Shown piece by piece: positions 4,917 through 64,000 of a stretch of DNA of 64,000 bases. The stretch lies in contig JAHFML010000001.1 in the NCBI GenBank assembly GCA_023269085.1, positions 190,356 to 254,355 of the forward strand, written 5' to 3'. A program made the position numbers and the translations under genes. The notes under the pieces were generated by a model that did not search any database, was not told the DNA's origin, and saw nothing but the letters and a program-made list of their open reading frames with translations. The stretch's first letter is position 1, and each line of letters opens with the position of its first letter. This DNA is from a bacterium. Lineage in GTDB: Bacteria; Patescibacteriota; Minisyncoccia; Phycocordibacterales; Phycocordibacteraceae.

Positions 4917-5366
4917 TCAGACGTTCACCGCCTTGGGAGAGTCCGACCTTCCCAAGAATCGTGCGGCGATGAATTTGTAAATGACGAGGATCGCGCTGAT
5001 GACGGTGAAGACTCCACCCATGAGGCGGGCGGCATCGTCACGATAGAAGCTGGAGAAGTTCAGCCCGATACCGCTCCAGCTCACCGGTGTCGTCGCGATA
5101 TATAAGAAGGCGAGCGGCAGAGCCCACACCGCGAACCGTAGCCACGACTTGAAGATCTCACGCGGGACGAAAATGAGGATGATGGTGATGGGGAGAATGT
5201 AGAGGGCGAAATAATAAAGTGGTTTGGTGATATCCAATGCTATTTGGTGTATCCATGTACCGTAGCAAGAAGAAACGGAGTTTATGCACCAAAGACTAAA
5301 ATATCGGAACCCTATAACAAGAAGAACGAGTACAGCCGGCACATATTGCATCATTCTTGATTTCAT
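4917..5366 (-). CDS. small polytopic membrane protein, paralog A
   Basis: 149 aa; C-terminal ~100 aa nearly identical to 5451..5894. Confidence 0.5.
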   Translation of the reverse strand: MKSRMMQYVPAVLVLLVIGFRYFSLWCINSVSSCYGTWIHQIALDITKPLYYFALYILPITIILIFVPREIFKSWLRFAVWALPLAFLYIATTPVSWSGIGLNFSSFYRDDAARLMGGVFTVISAILVIYKFIAARFLGRSDSPKAVNV

Positions 5367-5450: not shown

Positions 5451-5894
5451 CTAGTGTCCTACACTCCGGCGGGCGCGGGCGGCGATGAATTTGTAAATGA
5501 CGAGGAACGCGCTCACGACCGAGAAGACTCCGCCCATGAGGCGCGCGGCATCGTCGCGGTAGAAGCTGGAAAAGTTCAGCCCGATACCGCTCCAGCTCAC
5601 CGGTGTCGTCGCGATATACAGGAAGGCGAGCGGCAGTGCCCACACGGCGAACTTGAGCCACGATTTGAAGATCTCGCGCGGGACGAAAATGAGGATGATG
5701 GTGATGGGGAGAATGTAGAGGGCGAAATTGTAAAGAGGGTACCCTATGCCTTTTATACTATCGTCTAAACAACCCGTATGGTTGCTAAATTGATACATCG
5801 TACTGCATATATGAAAGGCGAGAGGATTACTCAGTACATAGCCAATCAAAGTAGCAAGCAAAACAACGGCTACCGGAAATATTCTTGATTTCAT
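5451..5894 (-). CDS. small polytopic membrane protein, paralog B
   Basis: 147 aa; tandem paralog of 4917..5366. Confidence 0.5.
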   Translation of the reverse strand: MKSRIFPVAVVLLATLIGYVLSNPLAFHICSTMYQFSNHTGCLDDSIKGIGYPLYNFALYILPITIILIFVPREIFKSWLKFAVWALPLAFLYIATTPVSWSGIGLNFSSFYRDDAARLMGGVFSVVSAFLVIYKFIAARARRSVGH

Positions 5895-30684: not shown

Positions 30685-33600
30685 CTACGCCCGAACAAGT
30701 TTGAATTGCACCGGACCAGTGGAGAGCGTCACGCTGTGAGGGCCCTCGCCTTGCACGACTTCGACCGCGTCGCCGGGCGCGAGCCCTTCGGCCTTGCGCG
30801 CCTGCGCAATCGCGCTCGCCATCTCGCGCTCGTCGCCTTCTCGAATAAGCTCAGGCGTGAGCGTCGTGTCGAGGGCGAGCTCATTGCCCACCAAAATCTC
30901 TTTCACATTCACTTCATCAGCGAGAACAGCCGAAAGCTCGCTCGTGAGCGGTTCAAAAATCGTGAGACTCGCGAGTGGCTGACGCACTTTGATGCCGGCC
31001 TTCTGTCGCAATTGTAATGCTTCTGACGCAAAGGCGCGCACGCGCGCCATGTCGGCGATCAGTGAGCTTACTTTGTCCGAAGAGTCGAGCGTGCCCCGCG
31101 AAGCCGCATCGGCGAAGTGGGACCAGTCGCACAGATGCACGCTCTCCGGCTCGCTTTCTTCTCGCACCGCGCGATACACTTCTTCGGCAATAAAGGGCAT
31201 CGCGGGCGCCATCACTTTCGACAGCTCTGCGAGCACGTGGCGCATCGTCGCGAGTGCATCCCGTTTGTCACCTCCTTCTTCTTTAAACCGATCGCGCGAG
31301 CGACGTACATACCACGCTGACAAATCATCGATGAAGAGCGCGAGCGGGCGCACCGCACGATCGAGCTCGTAGCTCTCATACCCTTCGGTCGATTCTTTCA
31401 GGAGCTCGGCGAGCCGCGCAAGAATCCATCGATCCAAGATATTCGTACTCGTCGCAGCACTCGGCGTGCCGTCGACATAGAGCTGATAAAAAGCGAGCAC
31501 ATTCATGAGCCGGCCGATGTTCTTCTTCGCGACCTCGTCGACGCCCTTCTCGGCGAAGGCGAGATTCTCTGCCTGCACGACTGGCGATACGAGGAGATAA
31601 TAGCGCAACGCATCCGCACCATACTTCTCGACGATGAGCAGGGGGTCGGGATAATTTTTCTTGCTCTTCGACAACTTCTTCCCATCTTCAGAAGAGACGA
31701 CGATGCCATTGACGATGACCTGCTCGAACGCCGGTTTGTTGAACAGGGCTCCGGCGAAGACGTGCAAATAATAGAACCATGCGCGGGTCTGATCGACGCC
31801 CTCGGCGATAAATTGTGCAGGGAACGTCTTCTCAAATTGTTCCTTGTTCTCAAACGGATAATGCCCTTGCGCATACGGCATCGCGCCCGAGTCGAACCAC
31901 GTGTCGAGCACGTCGCTCACGCGCGTGAGCGGCTCGCCCGCATCATTCACAAGCTGCACCTCGTCAATATACGGCAGATGCAGGTCGAGCTCATAGTCGC
32001 CGTTGTGCGGGAGTGGTGTGAAGTCGAGTGGATAGGGTGTCGCATATTCAATCGGATTGAACGCGTGCCGATATTCTTTCGTCTTTCCTGAAGCGATAAG
32101 CCGGAGTGATCTCACTGGATTCTTGTGCGAGACAATGAGGATGCGCGTATTCGTATACTGCTTCTCTAAATCGTAGAGCGCCGCACCAACCCTATGACGC
32201 ACTTGTTCTCCCGTTTCGCCGCCCTCTGGTGCAAGAGAGAATCGGTCGCTTGTCCCAGAAAAAAACATACTGTATTCGGCAATTGGCTTGCCGTCGAATA
32301 TACCTGCGCTTTTCTCGAAGAATCGCTCGTCGGTAATAATTGCGCTTCTTGCGAGACCGAGCTCATCCGCGACAATCTCTGCTGTCTCTTTCGTGCGTAA
32401 CAACGGCGAAGTGATTATGATATCGACACCGCCTGCTGTTACAAGCGTTTGTGCTCCTGCCTTTGCCTGCGCACGTCCAACTTCTGTAAGAGGATGCTTC
32501 ATTGCCGTCTTGGCCGTTGTGCTCATTACGTCTTCGACATTTGCAAGCGACTCGCCATGCCGCATCACAAAATACGTGTTGCCGCTTTTCTTCGTGTGCT
32601 TCTTCAACTCATCGACCGAGCCAATGACGGTGATCTCCCCCGCCGCATCCTTCCACAGAGGCATCACACTCGCCCAGAAGCGCTGGCGCGATATCGACCA
32701 GTCGCGCGCGCCTTCGAGCCACTTGCCGAAGCGACCCTCTTTAATATGCGCGGGCGACCACGCGATGCTCTCCGCATTCTTGAGCAAATCATCCTTCACC
32801 TTCGTCACTGCGACGAACCACGAAGTCGTCGCATAATTCAGAAGCGGCGTGTCGCAACGCCAGCAATGCGGATAGCTGTGCACAAGATTCTCCTTCGAGA
32901 AGAAGGTGCCATGTTCTTGCAGATATTTGATAACCTCAATGTCCGTGCCGAGCCGCACTTTGTCATCGTCGGACTTCGGCTTCACCTCCCTCCCCGCGAA
33001 GTCGGTCACCTCGCTCTTCATCGTGCCGTCTCCCTGCACATGCTGAATGAACGGGAGATTCTCTTTTTTGCCAAGCGCCATGTCGTCTTCGCCGAAGGCC
33101 GGTGCGATGTGCACGACACCCGTGCCCGTGTCGGTCGTGACGAAGTCGGCGGCGTAGACCTTCCAGCCGTTCTCGCGGTTCTTGAGCGTCGCGTCATTCT
33201 TATAATAATCAAACGGTGGTTCGTATTCGAGGCCGACGAGATCGCGGCCAACGAGGAGCCGCACCGGCCGCGAAGAAATAGTCTGGCCGAGCGGAGCGAG
33301 GAGATCCGAGGACTTTTCTGCAGTGGCCGGTGCGGCGACGATGTGGGTTTGTCCATCAACCTCGCGCACTTCGTATTCAATATTCTCCCCCACCGCGAGC
33401 GCGACGTTGCCGGGCAGTGTCCACGGCGTCGTCGTCCACGCGAGGAGATAGACCTCACCCGAGAGACCGAGCTTCTCTGGATTTTTTATTTTAAATTTCA
33501 CCGTGACCGAAATATCTTTGACATCCTTGTATCCCTCCGCGACCTCCTGTTGGGAGAGCGTTGTCTCACAGCGCGGGCAGATATGCATCGAGCGATAGTC

Positions 33601-34119
33601 CTCATAGACAAGCCCTTTGTCATAGACCTGCTTGAAGACCCACCAGACCGACTCCATGAAGGACGGGCTCATCGTCAAATAGGCGTGCTCCATATCGACC
33701 CAGCGCCCGATGCGCGGGATAATCTTCTTCCATTCGTCCGCATATTCAAACACGCTCGACCGACAGCGCTCATTGAACTTCTCCACGCCGTACGCCTTGA
33801 TATCCTTTTTATGTTTGAAGCCGAGCTCCTTCTCTATCATGTTCTCGATCGGGAGACCGTGCGTGTCCCAGCCCCACACCCGCGGGACATGATAGCCGCG
33901 CATCGTGAAGTAGCGCGGGACAGCGTCCTTGATAACGCTCGCGACAATGTGGCCATAGTGCGGCAGGCCGGTCGCGAAGGGCGGGCCATCGTAGAAAACA
34001 TATTCGCCCTTGGGCGCTTCCTTCGCGAGCGACTGCTCAAAAACCTTCTCGCGTTCCCAGAATGCGAGCGTCGCCTCCTCCCGCACGGCTGTTTCTGATT
34101 TTTCTGGCATAGACTCCAT
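30685..34119 (-). CDS. ileS: isoleucyl-tRNA synthetase (type 2) with embedded histidine-phosphatase (PGAM-like) domain
   Basis: start at MESMPEKSE; HYGH and KLSKS motifs; editing domain; ~195-aa insert with RHG and SH motifs (see findings). Confidence 0.9.
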   Translation of the reverse strand: MESMPEKSETAVREEATLAFWEREKVFEQSLAKEAPKGEYVFYDGPPFATGLPHYGHIVASVIKDAVPRYFTMRGYHVPRVWGWDTHGLPIENMIEKELGFKHKKDIKAYGVEKFNERCRSSVFEYADEWKKIIPRIGRWVDMEHAYLTMSPSFMESVWWVFKQVYDKGLVYEDYRSMHICPRCETTLSQQEVAEGYKDVKDISVTVKFKIKNPEKLGLSGEVYLLAWTTTPWTLPGNVALAVGENIEYEVREVDGQTHIVAAPATAEKSSDLLAPLGQTISSRPVRLLVGRDLVGLEYEPPFDYYKNDATLKNRENGWKVYAADFVTTDTGTGVVHIAPAFGEDDMALGKKENLPFIQHVQGDGTMKSEVTDFAGREVKPKSDDDKVRLGTDIEVIKYLQEHGTFFSKENLVHSYPHCWRCDTPLLNYATTSWFVAVTKVKDDLLKNAESIAWSPAHIKEGRFGKWLEGARDWSISRQRFWASVMPLWKDAAGEITVIGSVDELKKHTKKSGNTYFVMRHGESLANVEDVMSTTAKTAMKHPLTEVGRAQAKAGAQTLVTAGGVDIIITSPLLRTKETAEIVADELGLARSAIITDERFFEKSAGIFDGKPIAEYSMFFSGTSDRFSLAPEGGETGEQVRHRVGAALYDLEKQYTNTRILIVSHKNPVRSLRLIASGKTKEYRHAFNPIEYATPYPLDFTPLPHNGDYELDLHLPYIDEVQLVNDAGEPLTRVSDVLDTWFDSGAMPYAQGHYPFENKEQFEKTFPAQFIAEGVDQTRAWFYYLHVFAGALFNKPAFEQVIVNGIVVSSEDGKKLSKSKKNYPDPLLIVEKYGADALRYYLLVSPVVQAENLAFAEKGVDEVAKKNIGRLMNVLAFYQLYVDGTPSAATSTNILDRWILARLAELLKESTEGYESYELDRAVRPLALFIDDLSAWYVRRSRDRFKEEGGDKRDALATMRHVLAELSKVMAPAMPFIAEEVYRAVREESEPESVHLCDWSHFADAASRGTLDSSDKVSSLIADMARVRAFASEALQLRQKAGIKVRQPLASLTIFEPLTSELSAVLADEVNVKEILVGNELALDTTLTPELIREGDEREMASAIAQARKAEGLAPGDAVEVVQGEGPHSVTLSTGPVQFKLVRA

Positions 34120-34120
34120 A

Positions 34121-35788
34121 TTACATCCTCTCGGGTGCGCTGACGCCGAGGAGCGTGAGGCCATTCGTCATCGTGGTGGCGAAGGCGCGCGCGACGCGCT
34201 GTTTGTACGCCTCTTCGGGGCTCCCGAGCACTTGTTCGGATGCATAAAAAGAATTCCACGTGGCGGCAAGCGCGGTGAGGTAGGTGGTGAGAATATTCGG
34301 CGCGAGCTCCCGCGCGGCGCGCGCGACTACTTCAGGATAATGCAGGATGAGCCGCTCGATAGCATAGGGCTCGGATGGTTCTTCAATCCCGCCTTCTCCA
34401 TTCTCAGCATACGCGAGGATCTTCTTCGCCCGCACAAGCGCATACTGGAGATACGGCCCCGAATCGCCCTCGAGCGAGAGCGACTGCTCGGGGTCGAAGA
34501 TAATGTCCGAGCCCGGCGCTTGGCGCAGGATCATATATTTGATAGCACCAATAGCGACTTGCTCGGCCACATGCGGGTCCGGGTTCTTCACGAGCGCCTT
34601 GCCGATGATCTCGGTAATCAGGGCATCGGCCGTGATAACATTCCCCTCGCGCGAGCTCATCTTGCCCGAGGTGAGGCGCAAGAAGCCGTGCGGCACGTGC
34701 CGGGTCTTGGCCGCTATCGCCGGCGCGAGCTCGGCGAGCGCCGCGAGCACCACCTTGAAGTGTCCGATCTGCTCGGCTGCCGTCACGATAATCGAACGAT
34801 CATTCGGGACTCGCTCCTCTTTCAAAAAAGCGAGCCCGATGTCCTTGGCCTCATAGGTCGGCGTACCGCGACTTGTAACAAAAACGAGCGTGTGGAGCCC
34901 AACCTTCTCACCACGATAAATCACGGCGCCTTCGCTCTCTTCAAAAATTCCCTTTGCAATACCGTCATGCACCATGCGCGTACCTGGCTCGGCAGTCTCG
35001 CTCTCAAAAAAATACTGATCGAAATGTGTGCCGAGATGCTGATATATCTTCTCAAATGCTTCGAGTGATACAGCGCGCCCCTTCCGCCACAGATCCATGA
35101 CTGCCGTGTCGCTCGCCGTATAAATAACCGTGTTCAACGCATCGATTTCTGCCTTCGCTTCAGGCGAATCTTCATAGGCTTGGTTACCCGCAACATACGC
35201 CTCGCTCAATTCAAGCGTCGTGGTTGGTTCAACGATGCCGACTTTTTGCAATCCCCACAACGCCTTCGCGACATGCGGCCCGACATCGCCCTGATAATTT
35301 GCACGGATGACCGTCGCGCCTTCGTTCTCGATAAGCCGCGAGATTGATTCGCCAATCGTATTGCTCATCAAATGCCCAATATGCATTGCTTTGAATGGGT
35401 TCGGGTCGGTATACTCGATCACGACGCGCTGGCCTTCTTGCACATTCCCCTTCCCCCATCCTGTGCCTTGCGCAGAAGCCTCGGTGATGGCGCGCGCGAC
35501 GGCCGCGCGCGAAAGCGTGATGTTGATGAAGCCCGGGCCCGCGACCTCGATACTCTGTATCGAGGTCGGGCCGAGCACCGTCGAGACCCTGAGTTCTTTG
35601 ACCAGAAGCTCGGCCACCTCTTGTGGTCGTTTGCCAAGTTGCTTCGCCGCCGCTAGGGCCGCATTCGTCGCGTAGTCGCCATGCGTCATCTCGGTCGGCT
35701 GTTCGACGACAAAGGCGCCTGTCTGCCCGGCAGGCAGGCCAAGCTCCCGCAGGGCGCCAGCAACCGCTTCTCGAATCTTCTCTTCCAT
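34121..35788 (-). CDS. argS: arginyl-tRNA synthetase
   Basis: 555 aa; class I core with HVGH-type motif; C-terminal DALR anticodon-binding domain. Confidence 0.93.
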   Translation of the reverse strand: MEEKIREAVAGALRELGLPAGQTGAFVVEQPTEMTHGDYATNAALAAAKQLGKRPQEVAELLVKELRVSTVLGPTSIQSIEVAGPGFINITLSRAAVARAITEASAQGTGWGKGNVQEGQRVVIEYTDPNPFKAMHIGHLMSNTIGESISRLIENEGATVIRANYQGDVGPHVAKALWGLQKVGIVEPTTTLELSEAYVAGNQAYEDSPEAKAEIDALNTVIYTASDTAVMDLWRKGRAVSLEAFEKIYQHLGTHFDQYFFESETAEPGTRMVHDGIAKGIFEESEGAVIYRGEKVGLHTLVFVTSRGTPTYEAKDIGLAFLKEERVPNDRSIIVTAAEQIGHFKVVLAALAELAPAIAAKTRHVPHGFLRLTSGKMSSREGNVITADALITEIIGKALVKNPDPHVAEQVAIGAIKYMILRQAPGSDIIFDPEQSLSLEGDSGPYLQYALVRAKKILAYAENGEGGIEEPSEPYAIERLILHYPEVVARAARELAPNILTTYLTALAATWNSFYASEQVLGSPEEAYKQRVARAFATTMTNGLTLLGVSAPERM

Positions 35789-48033: not shown

Positions 48034-48108
48034 TGGTGCCCCCGCGAGGAGTCGGACCTCGAATAGCGGCTTAGAAGTCCGCAGTTATATCCGTTTAACT
48101 ACAGGGGC
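48034..48108 (-). tRNA. tRNA-Arg (TCT)
   Basis: 75 nt incl. CCA; acceptor GCCCCTG/CGGGGGC; D-loop AACGGATA with A20; anticodon loop CTTCTAA; imperfect 31-39 pair. Confidence 0.7.
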
Positions 48109-52367: not shown

Positions 52368-52439
52368 GCTCTCGTCGTTCAACGGATAGGACACCAGCTT
52401 GCGGAGCTGGCAATCAAGGTTCGATTCCTTGCGAGAGCA
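52368..52439 (+). tRNA. tRNA-Arg (GCG)
   Basis: 72 nt, no CCA; shares 5' half GCTCTCGTCGTTCAACGGATAGGA and T-arm with tRNA-Arg(CCG) at 58150; anticodon loop TTGCGGA. Confidence 0.7.
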
Positions 52440-52735
52440 CAATAAAGCGAAGCGAATATTGTGCTCGAGAGCACGTCTGGGAGACGTGCGGCAAGGAATC
52501 GAAAACCTTGCGAGCATTTTATCGAGCTTTCTGAAGCGAAGAAAAAATCCGCAAGGTGTACGCTGAGATTTTAAAAGAGCGAAGCGACTATTAAAATCCA
52601 AGTGCAGTTTCGAAGAAAGCTGCCTGAACCTGTAAGGTTCGATAAGCGTACTCGCGGTCCTTGCAAGCGTACTTTTCATTCTGAACGATTTGCAGGAAGA
52701 CGTCTCGTAGTACTATAAATACTGAGAATTAACGT

Positions 52736-53290
52736 ATGTCTAAATCTACTAACCTTAAATACTACTATCTCGAACAATATCTTGAAACAGAGGTACGGCC
52801 TTATTTTGAAAAAGAACATCACCTTACATCCGAACAGTTTTTTGCGATTATCGAATGGAAGAATCCGAAGTTTGGAAAGACTAAACTCACACACCTCAAA
52901 CCAAAAGACATAGAAAAACTTTTTAAAACTATTTACGGCGAGTCTAGGGAAAAGCAACTGAAAATTCTAGTAGACATTAAAGGTCTAAAGCTAGCCACTG
53001 CTTCTGCAATCCTTACGATTCTATATCCAGAAAGGTTTACGGTTTATGATGTGCGTGTTCGAAAGCAATTAAGAAAGCGAGGTCTGTGGGAAGAAGAACC
53101 CGATGATATTACTTATTGTGTCGACGTGGTAAATAGATACTTTGATAAATATCTACCCCCGATAGAGAAACTGGCTACAGACAGCGGGCTATCACTTCGT
53201 GATTGCGATCGTGCCTTGTGGGCACAAGATTGGCATGAAGACCTGATGGACTTCATTATTGCAGGTTCGAGCGAAAACAACACGGTTTAA
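52736..53290 (+). CDS. hypothetical protein (possible HhH-like motif), low-GC
   Basis: 184 aa; IKGLKLATASAILTILYPERFTVYDVRV; ~40% GC. Confidence 0.3.
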   Translation: MSKSTNLKYYYLEQYLETEVRPYFEKEHHLTSEQFFAIIEWKNPKFGKTKLTHLKPKDIEKLFKTIYGESREKQLKILVDIKGLKLATASAILTILYPERFTVYDVRVRKQLRKRGLWEEEPDDITYCVDVVNRYFDKYLPPIEKLATDSGLSLRDCDRALWAQDWHEDLMDFIIAGSSENNTV

Positions 53291-53298
53291 AATAATAT

Positions 53299-53913
53299 AT
53301 GAACTACTTCAAACCGATCCTGTATAGCATCAGTGTCCTTCTACTGGTCGCGCTGGTGTCCATTCGGTATCAACACGCAACACAAAAGGTTGTTGTGCCG
53401 ACTGTCTCATCAGCAACCTCATCAAACGACGCACCCTCTGATATGAGTCCCAACTGTGCCGCCTATTACAACAACGCAGGGAACGGTACGGACCCAATTG
53501 ATACGGAGCTCGCCGACTTCACTAACTTACACCCACTTTCTGATTATCTCTGCGGATCATATTCAGATGTCCTGAAGACGACACTAGCTGACGGCAAGGT
53601 TCTCTATTTTGTAGATCCAATCGCTCAAGAATCGTGTGGTAGCGGCGGGTGTACATATTTCCCCATGATTGAGGAGAGGCCGGGCGCAATCCGCCGTATA
53701 CGCGGTTTTACGGGTGGTTCTGACGCAGGTGATGACTCAGTCTTTGGCTTCCTGTCTTTCCCAAAGAAAGGAGTGGTGGAGGTGTACTGGCACGAGTCGG
53801 CAACATGCGGCACGACGAACACTTACGGATTCACTGCTACCGATACTCCTTATCTAATCTCCACATCTGACAGCTGCTCACAAGAAGGAGGCGTACAGCC
53901 TCAAAGAAAATAG
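53299..53913 (+). CDS. secreted/membrane-anchored Cys-rich hypothetical protein
   Basis: 204 aa; N-terminal hydrophobic segment; 8+ Cys. Confidence 0.35.
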   Translation: MNYFKPILYSISVLLLVALVSIRYQHATQKVVVPTVSSATSSNDAPSDMSPNCAAYYNNAGNGTDPIDTELADFTNLHPLSDYLCGSYSDVLKTTLADGKVLYFVDPIAQESCGSGGCTYFPMIEERPGAIRRIRGFTGGSDAGDDSVFGFLSFPKKGVVEVYWHESATCGTTNTYGFTATDTPYLISTSDSCSQEGGVQPQRK

Positions 53914-53930
53914 GTGCTCGTATTTATCTC

Positions 53931-54002
53931 GCCTCCGTAAGCTAACGGATAAACTACCTCGCTTCTATCGAGGCCTTGGGGGTTCGAATCCTCTCGGAGG
54001 CA
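53931..54002 (+). tRNA. tRNA-Arg (TCT), second copy, island-associated
   Basis: 72 nt; acceptor GCCTCCG/CGGAGGC; D-loop AACGGATA; anticodon stem CCTCG/CGAGG, loop CTTCTAT; T-loop TTCGAAT. Confidence 0.65.
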
Positions 54003-54015
54003 CTGATGGTAAATC

Positions 54016-54154
54016 CTCGCCGCGATTTCGTTTCCCGCTTCGGCCGAATCAATCGACCATGCCGTAGCGGGCAACCCCGAGGCCATCATGGCGCAGGTCG
54101 GCGCCATGCACCTTACGCCGCTTTCCGATCAGGATGCGGCGCAGGTGCGAGGTG
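54016..54154 (+). repeat. leader-module repeat copy 1 (5'-truncated; starts 14 nt after the tRNA)
   Basis: 139 bp nearly identical to the 3' part of copies 2 and 3. Confidence 0.8.
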
Positions 54155-54393
54155 AGGGAATCTCTGTAGCCGTATTGATTGTCAACCTCAAGTGGCTTTA
54201 CAAAGTTTCCGCACCTTTCAGGCAATTCATGAGTGGCTACAGAGCGAGTCAGATATTTGGTTGGGAATGGGGCAGAGCGTTATCAATTGCCCAAGGCAAT
54301 CCAGATCCTGGGCAATTGTCTAGCCATTCGCTAGAAGCTACATTCATTTACTGGCTTGGTAATAACTGGACATATCAACTCTTTTACAAATAG
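54088..54393 (+). CDS. cassette 1: truncated secreted-peptide precursor (conserved leader remnant + unique AT-rich C-terminal part)
   Basis: MAQVGAMHLTPLSDQDAAQVRG then divergent 80 aa; in-frame upstream TAA removes the signal peptide, so possibly a pseudogene. Confidence 0.4.
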   Translation: MAQVGAMHLTPLSDQDAAQVRGEGISVAVLIVNLKWLYKVSAPFRQFMSGYRASQIFGWEWGRALSIAQGNPDPGQLSSHSLEATFIYWLGNNWTYQLFYK

Positions 54394-54495
54394 CACACAT
54401 GAAATATATGCGTGGCGCTCTGTAGAAACTGATGAGTCCAAAGAGGGTCTACAGACCCTCTTTTTATTTGTCATGATTGTGGTAGATTCCCTTAT

Positions 54496-54840
54496 ATGAA
54501 GAAACTACTAAACAAAATCCTGTTTGCACAATATCTCTTCGCGCCAGAGATTATTCCTTTATTGGCGATTCTTTACTTCTTCGCCATGGTCTTTTCGGTG
54601 CACTTTGTGTTGTCTCTTTTTGTAGAAATAAACACGACTATCTTGATTTGGGTCTTCGTTATTGCCATGGTGGTGTTTGCCGTAACATTTCTTCCCGTAA
54701 TGATGCGGTTTGCGAGTGGTTGGCCATCGGGAAAAGAGGAGGAAAATTTGATTGATAAGTCCAGTCCAAGTGATCGTATTATTTATACTCTACTGTTTCT
54801 CGCTTCTATCTTCGTATTTTATTATATCTATGTGAAATAA
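54496..54840 (+). CDS. small polytopic membrane protein (immunity-protein-like), AT-rich
   Basis: 114 aa; 3 TM helices; directly downstream of cassette 1. Confidence 0.35.
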   Translation: MKKLLNKILFAQYLFAPEIIPLLAILYFFAMVFSVHFVLSLFVEINTTILIWVFVIAMVVFAVTFLPVMMRFASGWPSGKEEENLIDKSSPSDRIIYTLLFLASIFVFYYIYVK

Positions 54841-54920
54841 GAAGCTGACGTGTTTGGGGTGAACAGATACGCAACCAAATGGCGTATGGTATGTTGAGAA
54901 GTGGACATAGTTCTTTTCCC

Positions 54921-55143
54921 GAAGAACATCCTGTCCGTTCCCTTCAAACTCTCAAGGAGTCTGCAATGCGTACAGCATTCACTGCAGTACTCGCGGCGAT
55001 ATCCCTCGCCGCGATTTCGTTTCCCGCTTCGGCCGAACCGATCGACCATGCCGTAGCGGGCAACCCCGAGGCCATCATGGCGCAGGTCGGCGCCATGCAC
55101 CTTACGCCGCTTTCCGATCAGGATGCGGCGCAGGTGCGAGGTG
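54921..55143 (+). repeat. leader-module repeat copy 2 (5' UTR + RBS + signal peptide + conserved leader)
   Basis: ~223 bp, ~98% identical to copy 3. Confidence 0.85.
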
Positions 55144-55331
55144 CAGCATGGATGATTCCTGGTTGGATGTACGCCATCGTTTCTAAATTTCTGAGTGCAG
55201 GACATCTGGTAAGCTCATTCGGCGCCAGTTACCTGAATCAGATGGCGGCCGAGTATGGCTGGAAAATAAACGGCATCCCAGTACGGTTCTCTCTCATGGA
55301 TGCAATCTTCGTAGCTCCACCTGCACGTTAA
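54966..55331 (+). CDS. cassette 2: secreted peptide precursor (Sec signal + conserved LSDQDAAQVRG leader + unique Trp/Tyr-rich C-terminal peptide)
   Basis: AAGGAG RBS; MRTAFTAVLAAISLAAISFPASA signal with AxA site; conserved 36-aa leader; unique 62-aa tail. Confidence 0.55.
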   Translation: MRTAFTAVLAAISLAAISFPASAEPIDHAVAGNPEAIMAQVGAMHLTPLSDQDAAQVRGAAWMIPGWMYAIVSKFLSAGHLVSSFGASYLNQMAAEYGWKINGIPVRFSLMDAIFVAPPAR

Positions 55332-55394
55332 ACAATACTCAAAGTACGGTTTGATGTGTATAACCGGACGCCCCCAATTGGGGGCGTTTTTATA

Positions 55395-56150
55395 TCATAG
55401 ACTTGTGATTAAGTTCCCAATAATGTCTGATTTTCGTATCGGTCCGAACGAGCGTGAGTCGGTGCTTGAAGCGCGATTATCACCAAGCACAAAATATTCA
55501 TCGGGACCGAGCGTGGTGACAGAATCCGGTGTTGTGCTCCCGAGTGAATAGGGTTCATTTAATGATAATCCGTTTGCGGACACTACTCCACCACGAATAT
55601 CGATACGCTCGCCAGGTAATCCGATAACTCGCTTAATGATAAATGCTGGTGCCGATACATCTTGTTCACGCGATACAACCACCTCTCCTCGCAGGAAATT
55701 GTGCGGGATTTCATTTACAATGAGGTACGCTCCGTTTTGATACGTTGGTATCATGGAGTCCCCACTCATCACAAATGGCGAAACGATAAACATCCTAATC
55801 ATCAGTGCCAAGGGCACTACTATTGCAATAGTTATACTGATTGATGCAAGATAGGCACTTGTTGCACGTAGAAAAGATACGGGGAATCTCCTCTTGAGGA
55901 GCCACGTGCAGATACCGATTGATACGATCGCGTCGAATACGAGCGGGATTGGCAATGCGACGATGCGCACCATTTCTCCCGCAAGTCCGCCCGCGATATT
56001 TGCCACGAGCACAGTGATAACGGCATACCCAAATGTCGGACGAGGGAATGCAAACCTTCTTTCGACCCACAGGAGAACAGCGGAGCTAAGTGTGAGAGAC
56101 AGAACGGCAACTACTGTCATAACAATGATGAGCACTGTTGAGATATTCAT
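55395..56150 (-). CDS. lepB: signal peptidase I (S26) with unusual ~120-aa, 4-TM N-terminal extension
   Basis: catalytic SGDSMIPT and GDNRASSTDSRSFG motifs; start taken at MNISTV. Confidence 0.8.
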   Translation of the reverse strand: MNISTVLIIVMTVVAVLSLTLSSAVLLWVERRFAFPRPTFGYAVITVLVANIAGGLAGEMVRIVALPIPLVFDAIVSIGICTWLLKRRFPVSFLRATSAYLASISITIAIVVPLALMIRMFIVSPFVMSGDSMIPTYQNGAYLIVNEIPHNFLRGEVVVSREQDVSAPAFIIKRVIGLPGERIDIRGGVVSANGLSLNEPYSLGSTTPDSVTTLGPDEYFVLGDNRASSTDSRSFGPIRKSDIIGNLITSL

Positions 56151-56207
56151 ATCTACTAAGAATACCACGTGTGGTGTTCGGTGATATTCGATTATTTCGA
56201 GTTAAGA

Positions 56208-56431
56208 AGAAGAACATCCTGTCCGTTCCCTTCAAACTCTCAAGGAGTCTGCAATGCGTAAAACATTCACGGCAGTACTCGCGGCGATATCCCTCGCCGC
56301 GATTTCGTTTCCCGCTTCGGCCGAACCAATCGACCATGCCGTAGCGGGCAACCCCGAGGCCATCATGGCGCAGGTCGGCGCCATGCACCTTACGCCGCTT
56401 TCCGATCAGGATGCGGCGCAGGTGCGAGGTG
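56208..56431 (+). repeat. leader-module repeat copy 3
   Basis: ~224 bp. Confidence 0.85.
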
Positions 56432-56595
56432 AGTTCTTGCCCGCTGCGATTATCCCAATGTTGAATTACATTTACTACTTGGGGGTGATGTATGGAATAC
56501 CTACCGCAGTTAATTACGCAGCGGAGATCGGCAGTAGCCCTTGGATTGCAAAGCAATATGTGAAGGACCAAGTCAAGAAGTATTTTGGCTGGTAA
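56254..56595 (+). CDS. cassette 3: secreted peptide precursor (same signal + leader, different C-terminal peptide ending KYFGW)
   Basis: MRKTFTAVLAAISLAAISFPASAEPIDHAVAGNPEAIMAQVGAMHLTPLSDQDAAQVRGE then a unique hydrophobic/aromatic 55 aa. Confidence 0.55.
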   Translation: MRKTFTAVLAAISLAAISFPASAEPIDHAVAGNPEAIMAQVGAMHLTPLSDQDAAQVRGEFLPAAIIPMLNYIYYLGVMYGIPTAVNYAAEIGSSPWIAKQYVKDQVKKYFGW

Positions 56596-56694
56596 GCAAT
56601 TCGATGAGTACTGAATAACTTCGGCATCAACAAAAAGTGCCATGCTGGATCAGCATGGCACTTTACTATATAAATCTGATACAATTTCACTATC

Positions 56695-57081
56695 ATGATC
56701 TTCTGGAAGATATTTGCTTGGACAAATGCAATTATAAATGTTCCGTTCGTTATAGCGGCTCTTTTCGTCACGCCAGTGTTCCACGCCCTCGATGTCGCCG
56801 TATGGTTATTCAACGACTTTCCATTACTGGCTGTCCCTTTCTTGTTTGCGTACAAAGTACACGGAAAGAGATATATTCCTGCACTCGGTGTTTTAAAAGC
56901 TATTTTTGTTTTCTCTATAACTTATAACACCATTCACACCATCTCCGATTTCAAAGTATACCACTTCACTAGTATGCCCGGATTCCTGTTCGATTTGTCT
57001 TTTTATATCCTCATCATTCTGTCATTAATTTCTTTTTTGTTCTACATAAAAATGGAACGCGGCCTACAAGCGCATCATTAG
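56695..57081 (+). CDS. small polytopic membrane protein (immunity-protein-like), AT-rich
   Basis: 128 aa; 4 TM helices; directly downstream of cassette 3. Confidence 0.35.
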   Translation: MIFWKIFAWTNAIINVPFVIAALFVTPVFHALDVAVWLFNDFPLLAVPFLFAYKVHGKRYIPALGVLKAIFVFSITYNTIHTISDFKVYHFTSMPGFLFDLSFYILIILSLISFLFYIKMERGLQAHH

Positions 57082-57433
57082 CGCAGATCATATTCCACTT
57101 CCAGCGGCAGAGTTCCATCGTGGTAGATTCACTATATATGAAAGACTGCAAAAAGACAGGAACAACCATATGATGCATACTATATGAAGGGAGATCTCTA
57201 ATATATGGAAATCACTTTTTTCTCTGCGCTTAAACTTATAGGAATTGTTCTCGGGCTTGTGGCCATTTTTGCGAGTTTTGCTTTCCCTCTATTTTCAAGC
57301 ACTCAATTTGATGACATGCCAATCTGGATAAAAATCCTCGTTCCCATGATTATTACGGCGATTTCATTTTGGGTTATACGATAATCCGCAAACGAATATT
57401 TTAAAAATATCCTGGATACCGTATTGTTATCGC

Positions 57434-57631
57434 ATGCAAAAAATACTGTTCGATATTCTTATTTTGATTGGTGTCGGTATTGGCATTTTGTCGATTACTG
57501 CCCAAATAGCCCATAGTCTGTTCTCGGGCGTATCTTTCGATTCTTTGTCATGGAAAGTCAAAATGGCCATGGCAGTTGTGGTGGCACTCATTTTCTCAAT
57601 TTTTGAATGGTACACGTATACTCTCCTGTAA
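57434..57631 (+). CDS. small 2-TM membrane peptide, AT-rich
   Basis: 65 aa; a second 59-aa membrane peptide ORF lies at ~57206-57385 (MEITFFSALKLIGIVLGLVAIFASF...). Confidence 0.25.
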   Translation: MQKILFDILILIGVGIGILSITAQIAHSLFSGVSFDSLSWKVKMAMAVVVALIFSIFEWYTYTLL

Positions 57632-57698
57632 CAAGACCTAATTACGGATACTAAGAAGTCCCGCGATTGGTAGTCGCGGGACTGTGGCGCATCGATAT

Positions 57699-58061
57699 TC
57701 ATGTTTCTCCTCCCGCTGAACAGACAACCCAAACGTCCCACGGCAAAATGTCTTTGTCGTTGATGCCCGACAACACGGCATTGGCGCCCTGACGAATGGC
57801 GTCCGGTACGAGGAAATGCTCGTGCGTGAGCATCTCGAGCGGGCAAGCGACCCGCACGATCTTGGTCGGTCGGCCGTAGGTGTCATAGGTGACCACCCGC
57901 GGACGTTCGTCCCAAAGGGACTGGAAGATGGAAATGGTCGGGGTGGGTTGAAGACTCACCTTCTGCAGATACGGATTCCCTCCCGGGTCGCCGCGTGCGA
58001 GAGGTATGAGGCCAAGTGCCGCAATAAGTGCGGCGAGTGCGATAAAGAGCTTGCGGTTCAT
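57699..58061 (-). CDS. secreted hypothetical protein
   Basis: start at MNRKLFIALAALIAALGLIPLARG (signal peptide); GC-rich. Confidence 0.35.
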   Translation of the reverse strand: MNRKLFIALAALIAALGLIPLARGDPGGNPYLQKVSLQPTPTISIFQSLWDERPRVVTYDTYGRPTKIVRVACPLEMLTHEHFLVPDAIRQGANAVLSGINDKDILPWDVWVVCSAGGET

Positions 58062-58149
58062 CGTGCCCTCCTTGTGGGTGATGAAGCAGGACATCCTGCA
58101 CCACCAAGTGTATACCTAATTTCAAAACTTGCTGTATGGTGAGTGCACA

Positions 58150-58224
58150 GCTCTCGTCGTTCAACGGATAGGATAGCCCCCTCCGAAGGGGCCGATGACG
58201 GTTCGATTCCGTCCGAGAGCACCA
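58150..58224 (+). tRNA. tRNA-Arg (CCG)
   Basis: 75 nt incl. CCA; anticodon stem GCCCC/GGGGC, loop CTCCGAA; 5' half identical to tRNA-Arg(GCG). Confidence 0.8.
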
Positions 58225-62727: not shown

Positions 62728-63453
62728 CTAGATTGAAAGAGAAAATTTCTCAAGCGCAAGCGGGAGGGCGAGGCCAGAGCGGCGGGAGGATTGGAGGAGA
62801 GCGATGAGGGCGAGCGAGAGCTCACGCGCTTCGGCGGGCGACCACGCCGACCCTCTTCCCTGCCTACCGGCAGGCAGGTCCATCAGGTCGCGCGCCTTCC
62901 AGTGCAAGAGGCCATGGAGCATCTCCGGTGCATCGCCGGCGACCAGAGCGCGATGGAGCTCGAGCCAGAGCCGCTCGCGGTTCTTCGCGCCAAGGGCGTC
63001 GACGAGAGCGGAGTTGAAGCCCCGCGCCGCTCCGCGGCGCGGGGTCGTCGTATCGAATTGATATCCGACCTTGGCGAGCACTGCAATCTTCTTCGCTTTC
63101 GCTGTCGCGAGAGCGGGCGCGAGGATGATGATGGCATTGTCCGATGCCGCGAGCGCGTCGAGATGCGCGTCGAGCACATTTTGGGTGGACACTAGGTGTC
63201 CACCCGCATCTTCTGTTTCTTCTTCGGTGTTTACACTACGTGCGAGCGGGTAGGGGTCGTCGATGAGCACGAGAAGCCGCGAGACGAAGAGCCCGCCCGA
63301 GAGCGCCGCATCAGTGAGCGCGGCGCCGGTCAGCTCTTCCCGCGCGAGGCGCGCATACGCGAGGTTCGGCTCCTTCGCGCGCGCCTTCGCGACCCACTCA
63401 AAGGCCTTCATGCGCACTTTCTCCGTGTCGGTGCCGTAGAAAAAGTAAATCAT
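62728..63453 (-). CDS. holA: DNA polymerase III delta subunit-like (HolA)
   Basis: 241 aa; N-terminal MIYFFYGTDTEKV... clamp-loader delta pattern; contains in-frame GGGTGGACACTAGGTGTCCACCC palindrome. Confidence 0.6.
   Translation of the reverse strand: MIYFFYGTDTEKVRMKAFEWVAKARAKEPNLAYARLAREELTGAALTDAALSGGLFVSRLLVLIDDPYPLARSVNTEEETEDAGGHLVSTQNVLDAHLDALAASDNAIIILAPALATAKAKKIAVLAKVGYQFDTTTPRRGAARGFNSALVDALGAKNRERLWLELHRALVAGDAPEMLHGLLHWKARDLMDLPAGRQGRGSAWSPAEARELSLALIALLQSSRRSGLALPLALEKFSLSI
63183..63205. repeat. second copy of the GTGGACAC-TAG-GTGTCCAC palindrome, inside holA coding sequence (encodes GGHLVST)
   Basis: 23 bp identical to the rpsT/ruvA intergenic palindrome. Confidence 0.7.
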
Positions 63454-64000
63454 GCGCGCATCGTGCCCCAGTCGGGGCCGCTCTTCACATCAACTTGTAT
63501 CGGCACGCCATGCGTCTGCTCGGGCGTAAGGATTGATTCCATAATTTTTTGAATATCAGCACTCAATGAACCAACGCGTTCGGTGCGGATCTCATACACA
63601 AGCTCGTCGTGCACTTGGAGGAGCAGGTGCGCATCGTCGCTTGCCTTCTCTCGCGTGAGCATCTCGTCGACGCGGACCATCGCGAGTTTGATAATGTCGG
63701 CCTCAGTGCCTTGAATAGGCGCATTGATCGCCATGCGCTCGGCCTGCGCGCGCACATACGGGAGAGCGGACTTCATCTCGGGGAATTGGCGACGGCGGCC
63801 GAAGAGCGTCTCGGTGTAGCCATGCGTCCGCGCGAAGCCCTTGGTGCTCTCGAGATATTCGCCGAGGGCGGTGAAGCGACCAAAGTAGTGCTCGTAGAAA
63901 GAATGCGTCTCGGCGGTCGTCGTGCCGAGCTGTGCGCGAAGCGCGTTTATCCCCATACCGTAGAGGATGCCGAAGTTTATTACTTTTGCCCGACGTCGCA
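63450..64000 (-). CDS. polA: DNA polymerase I, C-terminal polymerase domain (partial; continues past window end)
   Basis: motif B RRRAKVINFGILYGM (no stop before 64000) and motif C QVHDELV; stop overlaps holA start. Confidence 0.9.
   Translation of the reverse strand, partial: RRRAKVINFGILYGMGINALRAQLGTTTAETHSFYEHYFGRFTALGEYLESTKGFARTHGYTETLFGRRRQFPEMKSALPYVRAQAERMAINAPIQGTEADIIKLAMVRVDEMLTREKASDDAHLLLQVHDELVYEIRTERVGSLSADIQKIMESILTPEQTHGVPIQVDVKSGPDWGTMRA

Follow-up and report, generated by a model that had tools for sequence, protein, structure and literature searches.

Three predicted secreted-peptide cassettes with a common leader module and unrelated tails in a low-GC island of a probable Patescibacteria genome

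The DNA analyzed here, hereafter called the window, is a 64,000-nucleotide (nt) stretch of contig JAHFML010000001.1 (positions 190,356 to 254,355; GenBank assembly GCA_023269085.1) from a bacterium that probably belongs to the candidate phyla radiation (CPR, Patescibacteria), and it carries three small genes, termed cassettes 1 to 3, that begin with nearly the same sequence and end in unrelated ones. Cassette 2 (54966-55331, + strand) encodes a precursor of 121 amino acids (aa), with a predicted signal peptide at residues 1-23, a pro-region at residues 24-59 and a C-terminal payload of 62 aa (isoelectric point (pI) 9.4), and is identical to database protein P0002. Cassette 3 (56254-56595, + strand) encodes 113 aa with a payload of 54 aa, of which a 96% identical variant, P0001, is found in a sister strain. 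Cassette 1 is truncated at its 5′ end and retains an orphan payload of 79 aa (54154-54393, + strand; pI 9.2) that contains five Trp and five Tyr and has no database match.

As proposed in the initial annotation, the three genes have a 5′ module in common. Positions 54921-55143 (+ strand, the reference copy, in cassette 2) and 56209-56431 (+ strand, in cassette 3) form a 223-nt repeat of 98.2% identity, which was recovered by a repeat finder, by self-BLAST of the whole window and by MAFFT alignment. Cassette 1 holds a partial copy (54015-54156, + strand), that is, the last 140-142 nt with the end of the signal peptide and the complete pro-region, and this copy is 99.3% identical to 56292-56433 and 98.6% identical to 55004-55143. 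The module is the only long repeat within the surrounding island, and its copies differ from one another at one to four positions. Its 5′ part consists of 45 nt of untranslated region with an AAGGAG motif 6 nt ahead of the ATG, and its coding part specifies the signal peptide MR(T/K)(A/T)FTAVLAAISLAAISFPASA, followed by the acidic pro-region EPIDHAVAGNPEAIMAQVGAMHLTPLSDQDAAQVRG of 36-37 aa. The first 140 nt of the module mRNA fold better than all of 200 shuffled sequences (z −4.2).

Homology among the cassettes had been described as ending at the same codon in all three genes. A common breakpoint near …VRG was indeed found, but it is not identical to the base: the homology of cassette 2 stops after GGTG, while cassettes 1 and 3 have two further bases in common, which complete a GAG codon (Glu). 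Composition changes at the same place, with a GC content of 0.63-0.64 in the module and of 0.44-0.50 in the payloads. The GC content at third codon positions (GC3) differs too, being 0.68 in the module, 0.46-0.58 in the payloads, 0.37-0.58 in the other island genes and 0.70-0.76 in the flanking host genes; the contrast between module and payload is therefore real, although part of it is due to the Ala/Gly/Pro-rich leader and the aromatic-rich tails.

Independent assemblies bear on whether such a repeat could have been collapsed or created during assembly. Logan contigs from the runs SRR14366760 and SRR14366756 are 100% identical to 56404-58179 and 56404-57714, and both start 28 nt ahead of the 3′ end of the module. 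A further Logan contig corresponds to 52631-54154, crosses the junction between the tRNA gene and cassette 1 (a junction reproduced in Logan contig L011) and stops at the last base of the module. This indicates that the repeat is genuine, because independent contigs break at the module edge, as is expected of a de Bruijn graph that branches where a repeat is real, and a collapsed repeat, which the initial annotation had named as a way for its proposal to fail, is thereby excluded.

The 5′ loss of cassette 1 next to tRNA-Arg(TCT) was also confirmed, with two amendments to its first description: the homology begins 11 nt, and not 14 nt, 3′ of the tRNA gene (53931-54003), and the start codon and N-terminal signal are gone behind both an in-frame TGA and the reported in-frame TAA, which lie directly upstream. 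The truncation point falls within the loop of a GC hairpin of the module, with a 9-bp stem and a 6-nt loop, that lies in the signal-peptide codons for LAAIS-LAAIS (54991-55014, + strand; second copy at 56279-56302). A T-rich run follows this hairpin, still inside the signal-peptide codons. An internal ATG at 54088 (Met38 of the precursor) is preceded within a few bases by GAGG, and a start there would yield a 23-aa leader of the double-glycine (GG) type that lacks a Sec signal. Another methionine of the window precursor, Met44, which stands 16-17 residues ahead of the leader-payload boundary, is invariant across the family described below and may be a relic of an ancestral start codon.

Behind the boundary, the payloads of the window (79, 62 and 54 aa) are Cys-free, cationic (pI 8.3-9.4) and aromatic-rich, and hydropathy analysis found no hydrophobic stretch of transmembrane (TM) length in them. 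Pairwise, they were no more alike than shuffled sequences (best z of three pairs 1.4), and when the payloads alone were compared with 5.8 billion protein clusters, nothing matched beyond the window's own proteins and P0001 of the sister strain.

Relatives of the module were sought by a word-seeded search of the 5.8 billion protein clusters and by an exhaustive HMMER search of the 59-aa module against 1.84 billion representatives. The former found only cassette 2 and P0001, and the latter found four distant small proteins (P0130-P0133) with 42-51% identity over signal and leader; three long, repetitive HMMER matches (P0127-P0129) were dismissed as compositional. In P0130-P0133 the signal ends in (T/S)(A/S)SA and is followed by a 37-aa acidic region of the form …(G/A)(N/D)P…M(H/N)L(T/P)xLSD(Q/A)xAxx(I/V)RGE. 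Their tails are unrelated, 11-61 aa long and usually aromatic-rich and cationic, the 11-aa tail of P0130 being without aromatics. Across the seven members now at hand, leaders carry charges of −2 to −6 and payloads charges of +1.8 to +2.8 (six of seven), and aromatic residues make up 16-24% of the six payloads of at least 37 aa; the payloads contain neither Cys nor a hydrophobic stretch of TM length.

Direct evidence for tail replacement came from L008 and L009, two contigs of one metagenome: up to and including codon 61 (RGE), starting in the upstream gene, their DNA is 84.5% identical, and past this codon they are unrelated. Because their homology ends after the RGE codon, the leader was kept while the payload was replaced, and the residue at which this happens is the one seen in the window. 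Together with the different tails of the four distant homologues, this answers in the affirmative the question that had been put to the family, namely whether payloads vary while the leader is conserved. The sister-strain protein P0001 joins the N-terminus of cassette 2 (MRTAF) to the payload of cassette 3 and thus has the appearance of a mosaic, and its upstream genes differ from those of the window: they are a 268-aa gene and a 215-aa Peptidase_C39 gene (PF03412). This peptidase gene stands two genes from P0001 and was seen only in the 2,974-bp ENA contig ERZ27297709, which carries P0001.

The contigs of the relatives have a GC content of 39-43%. On one of them, a divergent upstream gene has a weak match to an outer-membrane beta-barrel family (PF13557, E 4.6e-4), which suggests a diderm host. 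Membrane-protein genes recur near the peptide genes in several arrangements: L007 has a small one after the peptide gene, past a terminator; in L008 the peptide gene is followed by genes for a 128-aa protein with four TM segments and a 66-aa protein with two; and in L010 a 263-aa membrane-protein gene lies upstream instead. The leader, used as a single sequence and then as a family profile, found nothing in 185,579 GTDB representative genomes or in JGI metagenome contigs; the family profile gave no match in IMG/VR, nor did single leaders in PLSDB plasmids (leader of P0132) or INPHARED phages (window leader). In total, the family comprises about seven proteins among roughly 15 billion.

All members begin with a hydrophobic signal-type segment of 23-26 aa, predicted from sequence and hydropathy, that has a positively charged n-region and a hydrophobic core of 15-20 aa and ends in A-S-A (or S-S-A). 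For the family as a whole, the signal end can be written (T/P)(A/S)SA and the end of the pro-region LSDxxAxx(I/V)RG(E/A). Sequence comparison thus bears out the architecture first proposed, a Sec-type signal and a conserved leader ahead of unrelated payloads, and the impression that this leader belongs to no described family also held, in that none of the seven members had a Pfam, NCBIfam, PHROG or PDB match. For Pfam and NCBIfam this applies up to an E value of 10, apart from a sub-threshold similarity of the signal-peptide end to BhsA (best E 0.13).

The initial annotation had further compared the end of the leader with those of GG-type leaders, and part of this resemblance stands. With the cleavage site placed behind G-X, the residues at the leader end are L(−15), L(−12), S(−11), D(−10), D/E(−8), A(−7), I/V(−4), R(−3), G(−2) and E/A(−1), and the pattern LSDQ(D/E)Axx(V/I)RG(E/A) is present in five of six distinct leaders. 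The substrate determinants of C39 peptidases are Leu−12, Glu−8, Leu−7, Val−4 and Gly−2, with the cleavage site being Gly-Gly, Gly-Ala or Gly-Ser (PMC6363468); in the family, −7 is Ala and not Leu. A relaxed GG pattern had only two other matches in the six frames of the 64-kb window. The part that did not stand is the −1 position, which is mostly Glu, and no match to GG-leader hidden Markov models (HMMs) was obtained.

The island around the cassettes spans about 5.2 kb (52441-57650), as delimited by composition profiles, GC and GC3 values and tRNA genes, and the GC content of its genes is 0.38-0.50 against about 0.58 in the flanks. It is bordered by tRNA-Arg(GCG) (52368-52440) on one side and by a host-like secreted-protein gene, then tRNA-Arg(CCG), on the other. 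Its own tRNA-Arg(TCT), at 53931-54003 (+ strand; ARAGORN; Rfam 49.7 bits) and abutting the truncated cassette 1, has no encoded CCA and clearly differs in alignment from the host copy at 48034-48108, on which grounds it was probably imported together with the island. Rfam at a permissive threshold found only tRNAs. The sequence CAAGGAATCGAAAACCTTGCGAGCA at 52492-52516 repeats, in degenerate form, the T-arm and the acceptor 3′ end of the neighboring tRNA-Arg(GCG) and may be the remnant of an old integration site; it is the only att-type direct repeat found at the island ends, no matching repeat being present at the opposite end. The leftmost island gene (52736-53290, + strand, 184 aa) matches phrog_24538 (E 8e-15), and its product shares 26% identity with a hypothetical protein from Haloarcula hispanica pleomorphic viruses 3 and 4, matches that hint at a mobile-element origin of the left part of the island. 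A leader-like PLSD segment in the open reading frame (ORF) 53299-53913 was rejected (hhalign probability 1.4%).

Each cassette closes with a strong hairpin terminator: an intrinsic-terminator hairpin after cassette 1 (54440-54463, + strand), a GC-rich hairpin common to cassette 2 and the convergent signal peptidase gene (55366-55389), and a 14-bp hairpin after cassette 3 (56634-56664). Past two of these terminators lie genes on the + strand for polytopic membrane proteins, one of 114 aa with about three TM segments (54496-54840) and one of 128 aa with about four (56695-57081), whose hydrophobic, polytopic nature, as first described, was confirmed by hydropathy, and which are candidate immunity proteins. 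A gene of 128 aa is also found 3′ of P0001 in the sister-strain contig. Farther downstream, two genes encode small paralogous proteins with two TM segments each, tm59 (57205-57384, + strand, 59 aa) and tm65 (57434-57631, + strand, 65 aa). Together with a third locus (L004 1035-1220), they define a family of 59-65 aa with the motif F(D/S)D/S.(P/L).W.K between the helices. None of the membrane genes had a family match in Pfam, NCBIfam, PHROGs or PDB sequences.

Between cassettes 2 and 3, the opposite strand encodes a type I signal peptidase of family S26 (55395-56168, − strand), with the motifs SGDSM, KRV and GDNRxxSxDSR and an intact Ser/Lys dyad, that matches PF10502 with 115.5 bits (cut-off 22.9; E 3e-33) and TIGR02227 with 106 bits (cut-off 47). 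Its assignment in the initial annotation was correct, but of the four extra N-terminal TM segments reported there about three are extra, since the four hydrophobic segments seen by hydropathy include the canonical anchor. No homology of the candidate immunity proteins to this N-terminal domain was found. The nearest relatives of the enzyme are Patescibacteria/Parcubacteria signal peptidases of about 45% identity, which is the sole and indirect ground on which the host is taken here as a probable CPR bacterium. The only close homologue with an extended N-terminus is P0008 (L004 256-1011; 59% identity), which is flanked by small 2-TM proteins, one of them (61 aa) homologous to tm59 and tm65, so that the 2-TM family accompanies the multi-TM signal peptidase in both loci known for this enzyme. 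P0008 has Ala in place of the catalytic Ser (SGDAM against SGDSM) and may be an inactive pseudo-peptidase. Because no cassette is present on the 1.3-kb contig L004 of P0008, we treat the island peptidase as cargo of uncertain relevance and not as a defining partner of the cassettes; the gene is also absent beside the distant cassette relatives. An extra S26 peptidase gene amid genes of secreted substrates is likewise known from Bacillus subtilis, where SipW accompanies TasA and TapA, but the island enzyme differs from SipW in its approximately three additional TM segments and is not linked to the distant members of the family.

Taken together, and with moderate confidence, we read the cassettes as precursors of bacteriocin-like toxins, which form a very rare family not described before and gain their diversity by tail swapping. 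The precursor would be exported by the Sec system and its signal removed by signal peptidase I, after which the anionic pro-piece would keep the cationic, aromatic-rich peptide inert until a second cleavage at RG(E/A). The enzyme of this second cleavage would be a peptidase of the C39 type, with the signal peptidase of the island as the alternative. The mature peptide would act as a bacteriocin-like, membrane-directed toxin, from which the small polytopic membrane proteins encoded past the terminators would protect the producer. New tails, with their downstream membrane genes, would be swapped in behind the leader through homologous recombination, for which the module would serve as the 5′ handle; cassette 1 would then be a disrupted, 5′-truncated orphan copy, and the whole array would be carried in a horizontally acquired low-GC island of a probable CPR genome. 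The strong terminator at the end of each cassette was counted in favor of this reading.

Several observations weigh against it. No bacteriocin, immunity or toxin family was detected for any component in Pfam, NCBIfam, PHROG or PDB sequences. The tail of P0130 is only 11 aa long and the payload of P0133 is not cationic, the amphipathicity of the payloads, measured as hydrophobic moment, was not above that of shuffled sequences, and the AlphaFold2 model of cassette 3, predicted from the single sequence, had too low a confidence to be used in a fold search (predicted local distance difference test, pLDDT, 52). As to immunity, a terminator stands between each cassette and the gene supposed to confer immunity, cassette 2 is not followed by a membrane gene of its own, and the putative immunity proteins have no detectable homology to one another. 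As to processing, the −1 residue is Glu in six of seven leaders (cassettes 1 and 3 and P0130-P0133, as well as P0001), Ala being present only in cassette 2, and Glu at −1 is to our knowledge not a C39 site. C39 domains are normally cytoplasmic parts of an ATP-binding cassette (ABC) exporter, a setting that fits poorly with a Sec signal. A Pfam scan of 46 window ORFs found neither a C39 gene nor an ABC exporter. Membership of the GG-leader family is therefore not established, given the Glu at −1, the preceding Sec-type signal and the lack of a C39 peptidase or exporter among these ORFs, and the resemblance serves as a lead for the processing step. Since V-R-G fits the −3/−1 rule, cleavage after this tripeptide by a type I signal peptidase would be an alternative.

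A more specific version of the toxin reading, which we regard as unlikely when all its parts are taken together, is a two-step route on a mobile island, with export by Sec followed by extracytoplasmic cleavage of a GG-like pro-leader at R-G-E. The second enzyme of this route may be a stand-alone C39 peptidase or the multi-TM signal peptidase of the island, the precursor may in effect be a GG-leader bacteriocin of the classical kind to which a Sec signal was added, and the island may be shared between diderm bacteria and a CPR epibiont.

Known systems resemble the cassettes in part. The pneumococcal blp class II bacteriocin arrays likewise have several peptide genes per locus with a common leader and divergent mature parts, and the blp region likewise carries small membrane immunity genes alongside and varies extensively in content from strain to strain (PMC7595303). 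The leader end of GG-leader arrays is similar as well, with L−12, an acidic residue at −8, hydrophobic residues at −7 and −4 and G−2. Such leaders, however, stand at the extreme N-terminus, are 15-30 aa long and have no Sec signal, whereas in the cassettes a signal-type segment precedes the leader; and unlike blp, the window has Glu at −1 (Ala in cassette 2), terminators between peptide and membrane genes, no C39-ABC exporter among the 46 ORFs scanned and a probable CPR bacterium as host. A second comparison is offered by the Sec-dependent class II bacteriocins, among them enterocin P, divergicin A, hiracin JM79 and lactococcin 972. These too are small, cationic, unmodified peptides with a signal peptide, an AxA site and an adjacent immunity-like gene, but their mature peptide follows directly after the signal, without the 36-37-aa acidic pro-region of the cassettes, and they do not form leader-sharing arrays.

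Polymorphic toxins (CdiA-CT/CdiI, Rhs, MafB) agree with the cassettes in a conserved N-terminal part, a hypervariable C-terminal part and a short motif between them (RGE, to be compared with VENN), and also in a cognate-looking downstream gene, 5′-truncated orphans such as cassette 1 and recombination at the conserved part. They differ in that they are enzyme domains on large delivery proteins, whereas the cassette proteins are 73-124 aa in total with peptides of 37-79 aa, no toxin domain was detected in Pfam and the putative immunity proteins are polytopic membrane proteins. By analogy only, a conserved signal, an acidic pro-piece and a hypervariable cationic peptide are also found in frog preprodermaseptins, cathelicidins and conotoxins, which belong to another domain of life, are processed at dibasic sites and have no immunity genes. 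A shared leader with a variable peptide and an adjacent membrane gene is thus already known from class II bacteriocin arrays and polymorphic toxins; what appears to be new is the leader family, the pre-pro arrangement in which a Sec signal is combined with a GG-like leader that has RGE at its end, and its presence on an acquired island of a probable CPR genome.

Among other explanations, the one that survives best, although we consider it rather unlikely, is that the cassettes encode non-toxic secreted signaling peptides or surface-active or adhesive peptides, for instance for contact between an epibiont and its host cell, that have their export and processing module in common, with the neighboring small membrane proteins being receptors or unrelated island cargo. 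The lack of a detected toxin or immunity family, the non-significant payload amphipathicity and the terminators that separate cassettes from membrane genes would all fit this explanation, and GG-type leaders also serve pheromones such as CSP and BIP (PMC7595303). Pheromone loci, however, usually carry a sensor kinase or regulator, of which none was seen in the island; three unrelated tails with strain-to-strain replacement fit diversifying antagonism better, and an anionic pro-piece with a cationic mature part is typical of antimicrobial precursors.

An improbable alternative is a programmed switching array, comparable to orphan contact-dependent inhibition (CDI), Rhs and MafB modules or to pilS, in which silent truncated copies convert a single expressed locus and the GC hairpin of the module is perhaps the recombination site. 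Cassette 1 is indeed a 5′-truncated copy that keeps 140 nt of homology, it breaks off within the loop of an inverted repeat (9 bp/6 nt/9 bp) that resembles a recombinase core site, and P0001 looks like a mosaic. Yet two of the three cassettes are not silent copies, because they are complete with their own ribosome-binding site, start codon and terminator, no recombinase gene was found in the island, and the codons of the LAAIS-LAAIS repeat account for the hairpin. Moreover, only one copy is truncated, and as its truncation falls together with an insertion that bears a tRNA gene, a disruption is the simpler explanation.

Less probable still is that the pro-region is a recognition leader for enzymes encoded elsewhere and the tails are the modified cores of ribosomally synthesized and post-translationally modified peptides (RiPPs): the leader-core layout has a sharp boundary and the leader end resembles those of NHLP, Nif11 and GG leaders, but no NHLP, Nif11 or other RiPP leader HMM matched, no modifying enzyme is encoded in the island or on the relatives' contigs, the tails lack Cys and, with the exception of P0130 (11 aa), measure 37-79 aa, and a Sec signal would take the substrate away from cytoplasmic modifying enzymes. 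Finally, that the repeat or the order of the cassettes is an assembly artefact is scarcely credible, for although the source is a 307-kb contig of a metagenome-assembled genome in which a 223-nt repeat is within reach of mis-joins, and the sister-strain contig carries other genes upstream of the same cassette, the flank-module and module-payload junctions are both reproduced by Logan contigs of two runs, the copies are not identical and the same architecture occurs in four unrelated metagenome contigs, so that the existence of the cassettes is secure and only their order could still be mis-joined.

Elsewhere in the window, two tandem paralogous membrane-protein genes (4917-5366 and 5451-5894, both − strand; 149 and 147 aa) present the mirror image of the cassette pattern, with the C-terminal approximately 100 aa being 91% identical in DNA (4960-5222 against 5476-5738) and the N-termini divergent. 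A class I tRNA synthetase similar to isoleucyl-tRNA synthetase (30685-34164, − strand, 1159 aa) has a complete histidine-phosphatase domain inserted within its core (His_Phos_1, residues 532-702, E 1e-28). The region 62728-63956 (− strand) could be a split or oddly called polA: it holds a 241-aa ORF without a Pfam match, followed by a 168-aa ORF whose similarity to DNA polymerase family A is confined to the C-terminal end of the profile (positions 222-381).

If the toxin-precursor reading is true, the cassettes would represent a new family of small secreted toxin precursors that unites a Sec signal with a GG-type leader, two features that are normally alternatives, and a compact natural example of leader-anchored tail swapping. 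The conserved 60-aa module is a ready probe to mine new peptide payloads, and on the same reading a probable CPR bacterium with a reduced genome would be seen to carry an acquired arsenal of antagonistic peptides.

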